A stretch of DNA of 64,000 nucleotides, from the NCBI GenBank assembly GCA_963828465.1, contig CAWHEU010000021.1, forward strand, positions 32,001 to 96,000. Direction: 5' to 3'. The notes beneath the pieces are model-generated. The model was not told the DNA's origin. It saw nothing but the letters and a program-made list of their open reading frames with translations, and did not search any database. Source of the DNA: an uncultured Acidobacteriota bacterium (GTDB taxonomy: Bacteria > Actinomycetota > Acidimicrobiia > Spongiisociales > ZC4RG35). The position numbers and the translations under genes were made by a program. Below, piece after piece: positions 11,959-17,218 of the stretch; the stretch's first letter is position 1; every line of letters starts with the position of its first letter.

Positions 11959-13203
11959 TCAGGTGCGGACGGGGGTCAGCACCCCCCGGCTCTCCAGCAG
12001 CCGGCGAAGGGATGCCACGACCTCCGGGTCGTAGTCGTAGGCGGCGCCGGTGTGGAGGACCTCTAGGGCCTGCAGGGGGGAGAGCCCCTCGAGATGCACC
12101 TGCCAGTCATAAGCGGCGGCGACCTTGATTATCCGCGACACGATCGAGACATCCGGGTCGGTTTGCTCGCCCGGCTTGCGATAGGGCTCGTACTGATGGC
12201 GCACGTGGGTCGCCACTCGGCTCAAGTACGGCGACTCGGCGATGATCTCCGAGCTCCAGCGTGCGAGGTCGGTATCGCTGTAACCCATTCGCAGTATCTG
12301 CGGCTCGTTGAGGCTGACGCGCCCGATGTCGTGCATCAGCCCGGCGTACTCCACGTCTTCCACCTGGACCGGGCCTAGCCCGATCTCCTTGGCGATGGCC
12401 GAGGCGAGCTCGGTGGTGCGGTCAGCGTGACCATCGACCCCGAGCCCGGAGACCTCGGGGATGCGAGCCAGCGCACGGATGGTCTGCTTGTAGGTCACCT
12501 TGGTCTGTTGGAACCGTTTGAAGGCGAGGTGGGCAAACGAGTAGGGAAGCAGGGCGATGGGGAGTGCCCACCAACCAATCGCCGGTAGTAGTTCGCCGAA
12601 CAGTGCACCCGTGAGAGCCAGTCCGAGGAAGACATTGAGATCGTGTATCAGGGAGCGGGCCAGATAGCTGCGGGACAGCTCACGCTTGCCCACGACGAGC
12701 ATGGAGCGGGCGAACACCTCGACCGCGATCCAGGCGAGGAGGGCCACGACGAACGGGACCAGGTCCGCCCAGCCTCCGTTCAACTCGGCAAACGGCCCCA
12801 CACGGAGGGCGGAGTACACGGTCGCATAGACGACATAACCGGCGAATCTCCGCACCAGAGTGGGCAGAAGGTCGGTGTGCTTCTCCCCACGTGAGTAACG
12901 GAGTGCCCAGACGATGGCAAGGCCCAGTCCATAAACGGCAATGCACCCGGCCAGGTCCACATCCTGTGTCGAGCCGAGCACGAAGGGCACGGCGGCAGCC
13001 ACCGCCAGACCCACCGTGAACCTGTTCCCCGTGTTGGAGGCCGCTACCCCGACCATCGAGGCCAGCACCAACGCCGTCACCGCAACCAGCAATTTGATCG
13101 GATCGGTCACAGCAATGGTGGCCGCATAGAGACCAACCCCGGCGATAACGAGGACATACAGCCAGGAGACGATGGAGAGGGCGCGTGGGCTCCAGCTAGC
13201 CAC
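11959..13203 (-). CDS. Membrane HD-GYP-like protein with a degenerate catalytic site
   Basis: About 7-8 TM segments; GHADR, MHDIGR and YDPEVV are present, but HHE/GYP is missing and VAD reads VAA. Confidence 0.85.
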   Translation of the reverse strand: MASWSPRALSIVSWLYVLVIAGVGLYAATIAVTDPIKLLVAVTALVLASMVGVAASNTGNRFTVGLAVAAAVPFVLGSTQDVDLAGCIAVYGLGLAIVWALRYSRGEKHTDLLPTLVRRFAGYVVYATVYSALRVGPFAELNGGWADLVPFVVALLAWIAVEVFARSMLVVGKRELSRSYLARSLIHDLNVFLGLALTGALFGELLPAIGWWALPIALLPYSFAHLAFKRFQQTKVTYKQTIRALARIPEVSGLGVDGHADRTTELASAIAKEIGLGPVQVEDVEYAGLMHDIGRVSLNEPQILRMGYSDTDLARWSSEIIAESPYLSRVATHVRHQYEPYRKPGEQTDPDVSIVSRIIKVAAAYDWQVHLEGLSPLQALEVLHTGAAYDYDPEVVASLRRLLESRGVLTPVRT

Positions 13204-14587
13204 GAAGGGTCAACTCCGGCTCTTCGGCGAGACGACGGGCCATCTCCTCGTCGTTCACATGCGGGGCGCCCCAGCGACGACCGGTCTTGTTGAGCGCTCG
13301 CTCGAAAGCGTCGACCACCTCCGGGTGGAACTGGGCGCCAGAGTTGCGCCTCAACTCGGATATGGCGTATTGCTGTGAGAGTGCCATCCGATAGGACCGG
13401 GCCGAGGTCATCGCGTCGAATGCGTCGGCCGCGGCGACGATGCAAGCCTCGATCCGGGGAGGCTCACCCTGGCTGTGCCCGCTGCCGCCGTATCCACTCC
13501 CGTCGAAATTGCTGTGGTGGCCGGAGGCGATCTCGACCATGGGCTGGAGGAAGTCCACTTCGGCGAGGATCTCTTCGACGAGTTGAGCGTGGGCCTTCAT
13601 CTCGGCGTACTCGTCCTCGTCGAGCCGGCCCCTTTTCCGGATGAGCTCGGTGGGGACGGCCAGTTTGCCCAGATCGTGGATCAGGGCCGACCAGCGGAGA
13701 GTCTCGAGCTGGGTCCCACTGAAGCCCATCTCCTCGCCGATCATCTGTGAGAAGAACGCCACCCTTTCCGTGTGCCCTCTGGTGTACATGTCCTTGGCCT
13801 CGAGCGTCTTGACGAATCCGCGAATCGACCCGATGTGCGAATCACGCAATTGCGAGTAGGCGTAGAGGGACATGTGGCCAATGGCGTAGACGCCTACGAT
13901 GAAAACGATGATCGCTTCGCCGTCGGCGATGAGAAAAGCTGCGCCGATGAGCCCGCCGATGAGGCCCATGGCTACCTGACCGACAAACAGAGTCGGCATC
14001 TGGGACCAGGGCTCGAGATTGTCCCGGCCGAAAACGACCTTCACCGCATATCGAACCAGAACCGTCTGCACCGTGGCGTAGGCCAGGGCCGCGACCGCCG
14101 ACACGACCAGCACCCTGATCAGAGACCCGGCAGTGTCCGGGACGCCTTCGAGATATGTGTCGAGGATGAGGCCGCACACGGCGCCGGCAGTGACGATCTG
14201 CCCGAAGTTGGCCATCGGCTGGAACCAGCGCTTCTCTTTGAAGTCGAGCGGGGTGAACAGGGCGAGAGCACCCATCAGCGCCAGACCGAACATCGCGTCG
14301 GAATCGGGACGCATGGCCAGGATCACCCCGGCGCTCATCGCCACCATCACAGAGGCGGACTGCAGCATGCGATCGTTGACCTCGACCGCGAAGAACTCGA
14401 GCAGGACGAAGAGGACGGCGAATGGGGCCCAATACGCCCAGACCGGCATCTCGGAGTAGAAGAACGACCCGACGAGGGCGGCCAGACCCGCCAGCGAGTA
14501 GGGCACAGCGATCTTCAACCGGCGCTGCACCGTGGGTCGGAGACGACCGAACCATCCCCGCAACGGTTTTTTCCTACCAAGCCTCAT
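13196..14587 (-). CDS. Membrane HD-GYP phosphodiesterase (c-di-GMP)
   Basis: About 6-7 TM segments; KDMYTRGHTERV, LIHDLGK, HHSNFDGSGYG, ADAFDAMTSARSYR, QFHPEVV. GAGGGG RBS before ATG 14587 (alternative ATG 14605). Confidence 0.9.
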   Translation of the reverse strand: MRLGRKKPLRGWFGRLRPTVQRRLKIAVPYSLAGLAALVGSFFYSEMPVWAYWAPFAVLFVLLEFFAVEVNDRMLQSASVMVAMSAGVILAMRPDSDAMFGLALMGALALFTPLDFKEKRWFQPMANFGQIVTAGAVCGLILDTYLEGVPDTAGSLIRVLVVSAVAALAYATVQTVLVRYAVKVVFGRDNLEPWSQMPTLFVGQVAMGLIGGLIGAAFLIADGEAIIVFIVGVYAIGHMSLYAYSQLRDSHIGSIRGFVKTLEAKDMYTRGHTERVAFFSQMIGEEMGFSGTQLETLRWSALIHDLGKLAVPTELIRKRGRLDEDEYAEMKAHAQLVEEILAEVDFLQPMVEIASGHHSNFDGSGYGGSGHSQGEPPRIEACIVAAADAFDAMTSARSYRMALSQQYAISELRRNSGAQFHPEVVDAFERALNKTGRRWGAPHVNDEEMARRLAEEPELTLRG

Positions 14588-14636
14588 TGAGCCCCTCGAC
14601 GACATGTGTGACCGTTTGGTGAGCCGGCGTCGGTTA

Positions 14637-14714
14637 TCAGCCGATCCGGGTGCCGGCGAGCACTAACTCCAGGCTCGCGACACATCTGTGATTACGGGCC
14701 AGAAATGCCTTCAT
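14637..14714 (-). CDS. Small 25-aa peptide MKAFLARNHRCVASLELVLAGTRIG (candidate signal precursor)
   Basis: AGGTGA Shine-Dalgarno, TTG-ATG start and tandem TGA-TAA stop; lies directly upstream of and co-oriented with the HD-GYP pair; below the ORF-track size cutoff. Confidence 0.65.
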   Translation of the reverse strand: MKAFLARNHRCVASLELVLAGTRIG

Positions 14715-14847
14715 CAAGAACGCTCACCTGTTGGTGCCGTATTTCACCGGCGTTGTGTGCCGGTGTTGACGATCCGCTCCGCTGGGGTTGATGGGCGTCC
14801 AGTACAAGGCCGACGTCTGACGCCGGACTCACCGCTTTTCCCCGGCA

Positions 14848-14880
14848 AGTCTTGACGGGGAACCTTTAACATGTCAAAGG
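14848..14880 (-). promoter_or_regulatory. Putative sigma-70 promoter for the peptide/HD-GYP operon, overlapped by an 18-bp palindrome
   Basis: Minus-strand TTGACA-N18-AAGACT; imperfect palindrome CCTTTAACATGTCAAAGG at 14863-14880. Confidence 0.55.
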
Positions 14881-15055
14881 CCCCTGACTTCGCCCGCCAT
14901 TGGCCAGGCAGACGGGTCAGAGACCTCGGCTGCCCCACGTTTCCAATAATGCCTTCCAGCCCGCCGCAATCTAGAGCCTCTCGGTACCTTGAACAAGGGG
15001 AAATGCGGCGTGTTATCCCGATAGACCACTCCGGTTGGCTGTACGCTGGGAGGTC

Positions 15056-15676
15056 ATGGACCTAATCGCGCTCCAGGACAAGATCTGTCGCATCGACGGC
15101 GTCGAGGCGGCGAGGATCGTCGCCGGCAACGGCCATATCGAGGAAATACATGTCCTGGCCCGCCGAAACAAGCCGCCCAAGCAGGTCGTGAGAGACGTGC
15201 AGTCCCTGAGCCAGGCGCTGTTTGGCGAGGAGATCGACCGCCGGGTGGTCTCGGTCGTGCAGCTCGCCGACTCCGATCTCGATATGGGATTTCGTCCGGC
15301 GCTGGTCGACGTCAGTGAGACCCTCGACGGGTCCCGCGCAGTTGTTTCGGTGACATTGCGGTGGCAGAACGAGGTCTTCACCGGCTCGTCGAAGGGCGCC
15401 GCCGCGGTGACCACCCGATCTCGTCAGATCGCCGAGGCCACGCTCGAGGCCATCCGCCAGGCCATCCATCAGGAGGCGGCCCTCGCCGTCTCGTCGATGG
15501 ATATACCCGTGTTGGGGAGCCGCAAGGTGGCGGTGGCACAAATAGTCGTGGTCACCGAGGCGACCGAGCGACACCTCATCGGGTGCGCCTATGTCGAGGA
15601 CGAAGAATCGAGAGCGGTGGTCCGCTCAGTCCTCGATGCCCTCAATCGGGTGCTTCCCGACCTCAAGATATCCTGA
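15056..15676 (+). CDS. Conserved hypothetical protein with a LeuA-allosteric-like C-terminus
   Basis: GGAGG RBS; IEEIHVLA..PKQVVRDVQS..IDRRVVSVVQ N-domain and AVVRSVLDALNR C-terminal motif. Confidence 0.8.
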   Translation: MDLIALQDKICRIDGVEAARIVAGNGHIEEIHVLARRNKPPKQVVRDVQSLSQALFGEEIDRRVVSVVQLADSDLDMGFRPALVDVSETLDGSRAVVSVTLRWQNEVFTGSSKGAAAVTTRSRQIAEATLEAIRQAIHQEAALAVSSMDIPVLGSRKVAVAQIVVVTEATERHLIGCAYVEDEESRAVVRSVLDALNRVLPDLKIS

Positions 15677-17218
15677 CGCACGCGGTCTCCACCCCACATC
15701 ATTACTCCACGGATGCGGCCAAACGTGTGCTGATCGCTGGGGGCAATGCGGTGGACGCGGCGATCGCAGCCACCGCTACCCAGGGGGTCGTCGCACCGGA
15801 GACCTGCGGGGTCGGGGGTGATCTCTTCGCCATGGTTCACAGGCCGGGATGGGATGAGCCCCGTGCGCTCAATGCCTCCGGACGCGCCGGGTCCCATGCC
15901 GACCCCGGCCCCGTTCGGGACGTCAGGGTCATCCCGCGCGACCACCCGCTCTCCGTCACAGTGCCCGGTTGTGTCGACGGTTGGTCGGTCCTTTCTTCTG
16001 AGCTCGGCCGTCTCGCACTGAGTGAATGCGTCGCCCCGGCCATCGAGCTACGCCAGCGAGGGCTTCGAGGTCTCCACCGAGCAGGCTGGCGCCTTTCTCG
16101 ATCAGGCATCCTTCTACGCCGGGCAACGGGCGGTCCGAGAGTTCTATCCGGGTGGGGCAGCGGTCGTGCGAGGTGATGTCGTCAAGCGACCTGATCTCGC
16201 GGCCACTCTCCACGCTGTCGGCGAGCGAGGGCGAGATGCCTTCTATCTCGGGGATCCGGCCCAGGACATCGTCGAGGAATTGGGTGGCCTCATAACACAC
16301 GGCGACCTGGCCCGATCCCACGCCGACTGGGTGAGCCCGATCTCATGTGCGGTCGGGGACATGTTTGCCTGGACCCTCCCCCCCAACTCACAGGGCTATC
16401 TCGGCCCTGCCACGCTCGCGGTGTTCGAGATGCTGGGACCACCTTCGGACCCGGCCGACCCGGACTGGTGGCATCTGCTGATCGAGGCGTTTCGCTCGAT
16501 GGCCTGGGAGAGAGACGATCTCGTCGCCGATCCCGACCACGCACCCCTTCCCGGGCACCTCCTCCTCGATCCTGCCCGTTTGGGCCGAGCCGCCGACACG
16601 GTCGACCGAGCCGCAACGGGAGTCTGGCCCAGGAGAATGGGGTCCGAGTCGAGCACGGCGTACATGTGCATCGTCGACGACGAGGGCTTGGCCGTGTCCA
16701 TCATCCAGTCGAACTTCGAAGGGACAGGCTCCGCATTCGGCGCCGGCACGAGTGGGTTCTTGCTCCACAACCGGGGCAGCGGCTTCTCCCTGACTCCGGG
16801 ACATCCGAACGAGCTGCAGCCCGGGAAGCGCCCGCTGCACACCCTCTCTCCCACCCTCTGGACCCGCGATCGGGAGCCGACATGGGTGATCGGGACCCGA
16901 GGCGGCTCGGTGCAGCCTCAACTCGTGGCTCAGGTTGCGGCACGAGCCATCCTCGCCGGGAAGACCATCGAGGAGGCTCAGACCGCGCCGAGATGGGTGG
17001 TCCGGGAGTTCGGACCGTTCTCCGAGGCGCGTCTCCTGGTGGAGCCCGGTATCGCCGGGGCCACGCTCTCCAACCTGCGGTCGCGCGGGCACGTCATCGA
17101 AGAAGTGCCCGACCGCCAACCCGGTTGGGGGCCGGTGTCCATGATCAAAATCGACGGCAAGGACCGCACGACCCACCCGGACCCCCGCGTCGACACCACC
17201 AGCGCGATCGTTTTCTGA
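15673..17218 (+). CDS. Gamma-glutamyltransferase family protein (frameshift near 16050)
   Basis: GGNAVDAAIA, CGVGGDLF, LNASG, VTVPG, then LPPNSQG, STAY (Thr nucleophile), LHNRG, PGKRPLHTL, DPR. Confidence 0.9.

Follow-up and report, generated by a model that had tools for sequence, protein, structure and literature searches.

A micro-ORF with a conserved Arg/Lys-Ile-Gly-stop end in the structured leader RNA of an HD-GYP gene pair: a candidate cis-regulatory leader peptide gene

The window, by which we mean the whole stretch of 64,000 nucleotides (nt) analysed here, carries on its minus strand a micro-open reading frame (micro-ORF) of 25 codons, and a gene for a membrane HD-GYP-type protein starts 50 bases downstream of it. 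Such a short frame raises the question whether it is translated at all and, if it is, whether its peptide, the act of its translation or the RNA that carries it has been kept in evolution. On balance, and by a modest degree, we favour the reading that the micro-ORF is a translated cis-regulatory leader peptide gene, situated in the 3' part of a structured 5' leader of about 375 nt that precedes an hdgA/hdgB-like gene pair. The elements needed at the outset are the following.

14714..14637, minus strand: micro-ORF, 25 codons plus TGA, encoding the peptide MKAFLARNHRCVASLELVLAGTRIG.
14724..14729, minus strand: Shine-Dalgarno-like AGGTGA, the ribosome-binding-like site of the micro-ORF, 9 nt 5' of the ATG.
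14585..14597, minus strand: ribosome-binding site (GAGGGG, 14597-14592) and ATG (14587-14585) of the HD-GYP gene.

Along the minus strand, AGGTGA (14729-14724) is followed by six bases, a TTG (14717-14715), the ATG (14714-14712) and 24 more sense codons. The frame ends with TGA (14639-14637), directly followed by TAA (14636-14634). With the alternative TTG start at 14717, the frame has 26 amino acids (aa), as given in the ORF list (14637..14717, minus strand). The initial annotation had described an unannotated small ORF in this frame with AGGTGA and a TTG/ATG start, and this description is borne out by the sequence and by recurrence in relatives. The block CAGGTGAGCG, which contains the ribosome-binding-like site, is invariant in 24/24 orthologues of the same genus, and 18 of these 24 keep the 25-aa frame. 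As in regulatory upstream ORFs, the ORF, its start and its ribosome-binding site are kept upstream of the same gene across species, here the orthologous HD-GYP genes, and so is the C-terminal motif. Judged by this recurrence, together with the ribosome-binding-like site and a C-terminal tripeptide, the ORF is more than a product of chance.

The end of the frame is its most telling part. After removal of duplicates we retained 81 unique related leaders, of which four were cut before the site of the ORF end, leaving 77 to be scored. The third codon before the stop (codon -3) specifies Arg or Lys in 76/77 leaders, the exception being the frameshifted L027. The codons used are CGG (19), AAG (18), AGA, CGA and AGG (9 each), CGT (8), AAA (3) and CGC (1); within the pattern [C/A][G/A]N, all eight Arg/Lys codons thus occur and the other eight codons do not. 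Codon -2 is ATC in 76/77 leaders and GTC in one, codon -1 specifies Gly in all 77 (GGC 70, GGT 6, GGG 1), and the stop codon is TGA in 70, TAG in four and TAA in three. That eight codons share one meaning and that three stop codons occupy one and the same place is the mark of translation, not of RNA structure. Selection at the amino acid level accordingly extends to at least part of the peptide, its [RK]IG end. By these counts, the [Arg/Lys]-Ile-Gly end with its stop is the sole universally selected part of the peptide; because the genus of the window and other genera keep little else, the feature common to all lineages would be translation ending in [RK]IG-stop at this site.

Two side observations concern this end. 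The last codons and the stop are tandemly duplicated in six leaders (L031, L105, L032, L037, L059 and L119), for example as ...SARIG-stop followed by ATG-SARIG-stop, GSSKIGSSKIG or GNTKIGNTKIG, suggesting that the RIG-stop module itself is being copied in several lineages. In L027, the frameshift near the end of the micro-ORF makes it continuous with the HD-GYP ORF in a single frame of 504 aa.

The remainder of the peptide differs strongly between lineages. The commonest form has 29 residues, M[KR]xRLVRILAAAASLAALIAAGSAxx[RK]IG, and is encoded in 30 leaders, by 26 distinct sequences. It has three N-terminal basic residues, an Ala/Leu core of 15-17 residues and small residues (G/A-S/A-A) before the last five (GSA|Sx[RK]IG). 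This form is under purifying selection along its length and has a strong third-position bias: codon-position entropies are 0.35/0.21/0.86, the pooled ratio of nonsynonymous to synonymous polymorphism (pN/pS) is 0.28 (26 unique sequences), and serine codons switch between TCG and AGC. The 25-aa form of the window genus aligns with it across a 4-residue gap and has polar residues in the core; its best 15-residue Kyte-Doolittle mean is 1.34 in the window versus 2.26 and 2.17 in canonical forms. Among 15 distinct coding sequences from 21 leaders of this genus, the codon-position entropy is flat (0.39/0.43/0.32) and pN/pS is 1.20 in frame versus 1.48 and 0.70 in the off-frames. Selection on the whole peptide is confined to the 29-aa form and was not found in the window genus, which, by these measures, carries a degenerate form lacking constraint at the amino acid level. 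In 6/24 species of the genus the frame is even broken, five having a 2-nt deletion that alters the C-terminal half and one having AAG for ATG; what is left in the RIG frame of these species is a start codon and eight codons, M/V/L-SGS[ST][RK]IG. In several lineages all that is left is a mini-ORF of 6-13 codons with an [RK]IG end, for example MSGSSRIG, MSARIG or MAGNTKIGNTKIG, and other genera have hydrophilic versions of 25-27 aa, such as MRVTRSKRREVTASWRHVATTNTKIG.

Relatives of the 29-aa form extend beyond the family. At orthologous loci of three other families within the order we found a 29-codon ORF at the same place, directly before the gene; two of the peptides are MKAKVARFIAIASSLSALIVAGAASFKVG and MRTKMIRLMAVAASLAATLVAGGASFKVG, and the third ends in RVD. 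A profile built from 13 peptides, used in a six-frame search of 301 genomes of the class, gave matches in 50, with strong matches in family f1 (26/35), f12 (7/7), f5 (3/3) and f6 (3/3); matches outside the order were weak and mostly within long ORFs. By exact look-up in a collection of 15 billion proteins, three of ten peptides were present, named at most 'hypothetical protein', and the window's own peptide was absent. At two of the other-family loci (L122 and L123), what directly follows the micro-ORF stop is, by eye, a short GC hairpin with a T-rich run (ATCTTTCC; CTCTTTTTCC); a terminator-like element would here replace the long-range helix, described below, of the window's family.

These comparisons also bear on the signal-peptide-like layout that the initial annotation had read into the window copy. 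The canonical 29-aa form (2.26) does have such a layout, or a transmembrane-like one; the window copy shares the basic N-terminus (K2, R7 and R10). The core of the window copy (1.34) is interrupted by RNHRC and falls short of the 10-15 hydrophobic residues of a Sec or lipoprotein signal peptide. The likeness to a lipobox did not survive: no Cys follows LAG, the proposed A-G/T cleavage site has Leu at -3, and the window copy thus has neither a Cys at +1 nor small residues at -3/-1. Nor does the pN/pS of 1.20 reveal amino acid selection in the genus. It had further been suspected that two compensating indel errors mask a more hydrophobic core; this is refuted by independent assemblies (L004, L005, L098 and L120) carrying the same or nearly the same peptide, and RNA contigs of four studies differ inside 14637-14714 by substitutions only (14664-14666 and 14685), with no indel. 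Cleavage of a signal peptide and release of a TRIG-like peptide are not supported for the window copy, the canonical 29-aa form remaining a candidate.

The leader in which the micro-ORF lies is conserved well beyond the frame. In the genus alignment, column identity over 14621-14980 is 0.80-0.95, above that of the flanking coding DNA (0.73-0.85), and indels of 1, 2 and 4 bases are confined to short variable patches. With the intergenic region of 501 nt as query, matches were obtained in 23/24 other genomes of the genus and in 0/16 genomes of other families. Across the family, BLASTN detected the leader in 110/201 genomes, a tally that takes in the window's own genome and the unpublished G114, and in 18/38 genera. 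A profile of the genus alignment matched 20/20 distant loci that we fetched, nearly end to end. At all 21 loci, the window included, the ORF that follows begins with the N-terminal motif conserved in the HD-GYP protein; 18 of these ORFs have 462-504 aa, two are cut by the contig end and one has 159 aa. An exact two-block pattern of the leader occurred at 77 loci among 185,579 species genomes, all of them metagenome-assembled and most labelled Acidimicrobiia. A family leader profile gave no nhmmer match in the upstream regions of three other-family orthologues. Rfam yielded no match in 14570-15010 at E values up to 10; a match to HCV_SL1412 in 13000-16500 was discarded as chance-level (E 2.4, inside the coding region). 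From what the alignments indicate, the leader is a large folded RNA without an Rfam match, and the family itself is new.

At the 5' end of the leader we noted a putative promoter.

14968..14996, minus strand: promoter-like box, TTGTTC (14996-14991), 17-nt spacer and TAGATT (14973-14968).

We regard the box as promoter-like on account of its conservation and of the place where the RNA contigs end. TAGATT is invariant in 44/44 aligned leaders and present in 80/81 unique leaders, the exception being cut at its 5' end. The box matches 7/12 consensus letters, and a consensus promoter scan called no site at it. Transcription probably starts at about 14967-14959.

The fold of the leader was assessed in an alignment of 76 leaders (A2) with hand-placed helices, the controls being partners slid by 1-3 columns and 500 shuffles. 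Over all tested helices, 89.1% of the cells are paired versus 23-44% in the slid controls; 29/51 pairs change on both sides, and 0/500 shuffles reach the observed values. The elements concerned are listed below, long-range (LR) helices first.

14819..14833, minus strand: 5' strand of LR1, GGTGAG, one base, CCGGCGTC (as RNA, GGUGAG.CCGGCGUC).
14618..14631, minus strand: 3' strand of LR1, GACGCCGG CTCACC, beginning 5 nt after the stop codon.
14808..14814, minus strand: 5' strand of the Gly-stop helix, GTCGGCC, pairing with 14642-14636.
14869..14875, minus strand: 5' strand of LR2, GACATGT, pairing with 14607-14601.
14601..14607, minus strand: 3' strand of LR2, ACATGTC.
14838..14862, minus strand: hairpin UUCCCCG...CGGGGAA, loop variable in length, 77-82% paired and showing compensatory changes.
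14745..14765, minus strand: hairpin CACCGGC...GCCGGTG, 89.0% paired, 6/7 pairs changing on both sides.

LR1, a long-range helix of 14 base pairs (bp), is the best-supported element, with 92.1% pairing and compensatory changes in 9/14 pairs; the spacing between the stop codon and its 3' strand is 4-7 nt in 72/77 leaders. Stacked on LR1 is the Gly-stop helix, whose 3' strand GGCUGAU consists of the Gly codon, the stop and one further base (7 pairs, 88.5% paired, 4/7 changing on both sides). The 5' strands of both helices lie about 170-215 nt upstream of their 3' strands. A local hairpin, CCGGCGU-CAG-ACGUCGG, in which the 5' strand of LR1 pairs with 14816-14810, competes with this arrangement; it is 81.9% paired versus 31-51% in the slid controls, and its covariation is weaker. 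LR2 lies outside LR1 and is 84.5% paired, with 1/7 pairs changing on both sides. According to the RNAalifold consensus, the AGGUG of the micro-ORF pairs with the micro-ORF's own codons 12-15 (85.4% paired, 3/8 pairs two-sided), and GUGGGGC near the 5' end of the leader pairs with the HD-GYP start region (77.4% paired). The ORF thus overlaps alternative RNA structures, its Gly-stop and the positions 5-18 nt beyond the stop being part of covarying helices. That the ORF sits in a large conserved structured RNA, with helices that include its own last codons, had been missed in the initial annotation.

The positions of the helices suggest how translation could act in cis. A ribosome finishing the micro-ORF must melt the Gly-stop helix and would cover the 3' strand of LR1 as well. 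A ribosome that reaches RIG-stop, and probably lingers there, would in this way cover the 3' strands of both helices; the leader may then give up the closed long-range fold in favour of the local hairpin, and this flip would decide if transcription or translation proceeds into the HD-GYP gene. Regulation by tnaC of E. coli includes a Rho step. A possible output here would be the unmasking of the start region or, as in tnaC, the hiding of a C-rich Rho entry site, Rho dependence being a guess. The 29-aa hydrophobic peptide probably has an added membrane role in most of the order; in the window genus this role would have decayed, with retention of the cis role and of the RIG end.

Soil metatranscriptomes provide a view of the leader as RNA. 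Six runs contain part of 14400-15100, and four of them, from four studies, were compared.

14599..14959, minus strand (inferred): stretch covered by RNA contigs of four runs.
Run X15: contig cover 14614-14959, depth 5.
Run X16: contig cover 14629-14948, depth 6.
Run X17: contig cover 14645-14948, depth 175, adapter letters at both ends.
Run X18: contig cover 14599-14878, depth 253, adapter letters before 14599.

In none of the four runs was 14960-15100 covered, and the upstream contig boundary fits a start a few bases after TAGATT (14973-14968). In X17 and X18 the coding region is represented by separate contigs of depth 10-13 that show more mismatches than the leader contigs; uncovered parts of 14400-15100 in X15 and X16 were not counted as absence. 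The minus strand was assigned on account of the many G-U pairs in the supported helices, as the contigs carry no strand. Taken together, the contigs hint at a discrete RNA, roughly 300-350 nt long, as the form in which the leader accumulates. As a side observation, RNA contigs of 3/4 runs are one base shorter than the window in an A-run at 14836, in the non-coding part of the leader, where relatives of the genus vary too.

The 5' domain of the leader contains a further conserved segment.

14879..14898, minus strand: 20-mer GGCGGGCGAAGTCAGGGGCC, invariant in the genus and nearly so in 76 leaders.

The window's own genome has a second copy, 19/20 identical (G000:C22:557397-557416; locus L167, around 1500-1520). 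It belongs to the apical part of a long hairpin situated between mraZ and rsmH/mraW (assigned by Pfam) and lies on the strand opposite those genes. Because of this orientation, the leader RNA is complementary to the rsmH 5' region, at 20/21 positions by our own count. The stem of the hairpin holds the GGGGGG box and the AUG of rsmH, i.e. it buries the ribosome-binding site and the start. The same arrangement was seen in four genomes of two other genera, and the rsmH-side copy was present in 35/35 genomes of the family that were searched. A one-letter variant of the rsmH-side copy was found in families f2 (16/16), f12 (6/7) and f11 (2/2), the reversed-pattern control giving 0-1 per genome. Within the leader, the 20-mer can pair with an upstream strand (alignment columns 52-74 with 93-112; 93.6% paired), the changes in this helix being one-sided C/U opposite an invariant G. 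The same upstream strand can instead pair further upstream, at 94.5% and 98.1%, with G-C to A-U changes; given two well-kept alternative pairings, the 20-mer could be exposed or hidden. At four mraZ-rsmH loci, Rfam gave chance-level matches only. The duplex energy of the leader with the rsmH leader (-126.7 versus a shuffled mean of -114.2) was rejected as a control, long duplexes being uninformative, and a third 20-mer-like site in the same genome (contig C24), with two mismatches and inside a long ORF, was taken as chance.

Several points weigh against a cis-regulatory leader peptide. Thermodynamic folds of 62 leaders gave no clear masking of the HD-GYP start, the partners being diffuse; the mean unpaired probability was 0.42 for the ribosome-binding site and 0.41 for the AUG, and opening the stop region by constraint in single-sequence folds changed little. 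A terminator scan returned no intrinsic terminators. Contig depth is a poor measure of abundance and the contigs are strandless, and since the coding-region contigs of X17 and X18 have more mismatches, they may come from relatives. Constraint at the RNA level acts on the ATC (76/77) and the Gly-stop bases as well, which means that the 'RIG' conservation may in part be one of nucleotides. Conservation of the whole 29-aa form across four families, as it appears in the alignments, exceeds an obvious cis need and fits a trans-acting membrane peptide. This last point leads to an alternative that we consider unlikely, though it deserves attention: the product of the ORF would be what matters, as a small peptide, inserted into the membrane or exported, that would be a partner of the adjacent HD-GYP sensor or a signal to it, either an MgrB-/KdpF-like subunit or a signal peptide releasing xx[RK]IG as its C-terminal pentapeptide. 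In that case the RNA helices would merely couple translation of the peptide to the operon, and the window copy would be a decaying relic. The basic N-terminus of the 29-aa form, its Ala/Leu core (2.26), the small residues before the last five and purifying selection along its length (pN/pS 0.28) speak for such a product, as do its retention in four families, including genera lacking a BLASTN-detectable leader (in g28, leader 0/8 and micro-ORF profile 4/4), and mini-ORFs that retain exactly the last 5-8 residues. However, the peptide of the window genus is too weakly hydrophobic (1.34), unconstrained and frame-broken in 6/24 species, and hydrophilic or 6-10-aa versions without an export signal occur elsewhere, yet RIG-stop and its position within the helices persist. 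A chain of 25-29 aa finishes translation while inside the ribosome tunnel, which makes co-translational targeting unlikely. A predicted complex of the 29-aa peptide with residues 1-255 of the HD-GYP protein scored 0.09 and 0.10, the mark being 0.32; this gives the alternative no support, and we count it neither for nor against.

It is rather improbable that the leader is mainly a trans-acting dual-function RNA whose 20-mer pairs with the apical rsmH (mraW) hairpin, with the micro-ORF as a secondary element or a switch. RNA contigs bounded to the leader in four studies, the 20/21 complementarity with a family-wide rsmH-side copy (35/35) and the two alternative pairings of the 20-mer region (94.5-98.1% versus 93.6%) would suit it. 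On the other hand, complementarity of sequence is its sole evidence, and the likeness reaches past the 20-mer (CCAAT..GG before it, by eye), which makes common descent or a shared protein-binding DNA site possible, the strand then being irrelevant. Moreover, the strand of the abundant RNA was inferred rather than read, and the micro-ORF also occurs in families with the rsmH-side copy only or with no copy of the 20-mer. That the ORF is untranslated, its open frame persisting merely through constraint of RNA structure on the bases, seems very improbable. Such constraint would explain why the window genus has no codon periodicity and a pN/pS of about 1, why the invariant nucleotide blocks GCGAGCCTG and GTGCTCGCCGGC include wobble positions, why changes in the ORF look, by eye, compensatory for a hairpin at 14683-14650, and why the frame is broken in 6/24 species. 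It is difficult to reconcile with eight codons at -3 that all specify Arg or Lys (76/77), with three different stops at the same place and Gly encoded by GGC, GGT and GGG, with the third-position bias and the pN/pS of 0.28 of the 29-aa form, with AGGTGA conserved at a proper spacing, or with the start codon and short RIG-stop frame kept by species whose frame is broken. The readings as cis-acting micro-ORF, trans-acting peptide and dual-function RNA are not mutually exclusive. A combination, which we hold to be more improbable than the trans-acting RNA by itself, would make the leader a stable riboregulator of about 350 nt with two outputs on the same flip: a [RK]IG-stop switch gating the c-di-GMP phosphodiesterase operon in cis, and pairing of the 20-mer with rsmH in trans. 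If true, turnover of a second messenger would be tied to division (dcw cluster) in a whole family of uncultured soil Acidimicrobiia.

The operon downstream of the leader comprises two genes.

13196..14587, minus strand: membrane HD-GYP-type protein (c-di-GMP phosphodiesterase type), hdgA-like, 463 aa, Pfam HD_5 (1.9e-27).
11959..13203, minus strand: second membrane HD-domain protein, hdgB-like, degenerate, Pfam HD_5 (4.1e-10).

The true start of the first gene is likely to be ATG 14587, because orthologues begin there (M[RK]L...). Its 463-aa product belongs to HD_5 (PF13487) with 96.5 bits at a cut-off of 27.2 and has hydrophobic segments over the first ~245 residues. Residues at about 358-372 read GHHSNFDGSGYGG, versus HHExxDGxGYP, and GYG replaces GYP in 12/12 aligned orthologues of the family. 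In the second protein the HD dyad is present and there is no HHE...GYP stretch; NCBIfam matches of both proteins are below the curated cut-offs. According to passages of Al-Bassam et al. (PMC6205966), hdgA-hdgB of Streptomyces venezuelae encode a six-transmembrane (6TM) HD-GYP protein followed by a 6TM protein with a degenerate HD-GYP domain. The window pair has the same layout in one operon and is likened to that pair by gene layout, its family's proteins reading GYG instead of GYP; a leader RNA or micro-ORF is not mentioned in those passages of PMC6205966.

On the other side of the leader, a divergent ORF of 206 aa (15056-15676, plus strand) shows gap-free conservation in the genus and has no Pfam or NCBIfam family. 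The gamma-glutamyltranspeptidase gene (15361-17218, plus strand) is split over the frames 15361..16176 and 16022..17218, with the Pfam match switching frame near 16050; the split reflects either a frameshift or an indel of the assembly.

Known kinds of element include leader peptides, small membrane proteins and dual-function RNAs; the present family is absent from Rfam. In the literature, searched at the level of titles and abstracts, we found no paper linking HD-GYP genes with a leader peptide or micro-ORF. The locus would provide a comparative case in which a hydrophobic peptide in most lineages is set against a three-residue end with its stop in others, separating the cis from the trans part. 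It would also provide a new large structured RNA with long-range helices that is expressed in soil, and a lead on the control of the poorly understood membrane HD-GYP sensors of the hdgA/hdgB type.

Small membrane proteins such as MgrB with PhoQ or KdpF with KdpABC are partners of membrane sensors and pumps. Like them, the 29-aa form would consist of one hydrophobic helix, and its ORF immediately precedes the gene of a membrane sensor; the window genus and others have lost the hydrophobic core, however, and the binding partner is putative here. Arrest motifs of the SecM/RAPP type consist of R-A-G/P with Pro in the A site. Similarly, an Arg is located here two residues before the Gly expected in the P site (R-x-G, followed by the A-site codon), but the A site would contain a stop codon instead of Pro, and a pulling-force sensor would require a longer chain. 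Among dual-function RNAs, passages of PMC8915982, PMC8672173 and PMC12612679 describe AzuCR with the 28-aa AzuC, VcdRP with the 29-aa VcdP, and SgrS/SgrT. Going by these passages, the leader shares with them an abundant structured RNA having an ORF of 25-29 codons and a separate conserved segment complementary to the 5' region of another mRNA. It differs in being the 5' leader of an operon as well, in a peptide that is unconstrained in the window genus, and in an rsmH pairing that consists of sequence complementarity only.

For a cis-regulatory leader peptide, the systems to compare are tnaC of the E. coli tnaCAB operon and speFL. As described in parts of PMC8450073 and 10.1101/604074, these are leader ORFs of 24-34 codons with selected residues that extend to the very end; the stop codon is where the ribosome is held, and the bases just past the stop decide whether transcription goes onward. 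The present leader has no sequence likeness to them and no known ligand, it is far larger (~375 nt), and its post-stop bases are a strand of a covarying 14-bp long-range helix and not a plain Rho entry site. What it has in common with tnaC and speFL, as far as those parts of the sources go, is a conserved peptide end with a true stop codon, followed from 5 nt after the stop by conserved C-rich RNA.

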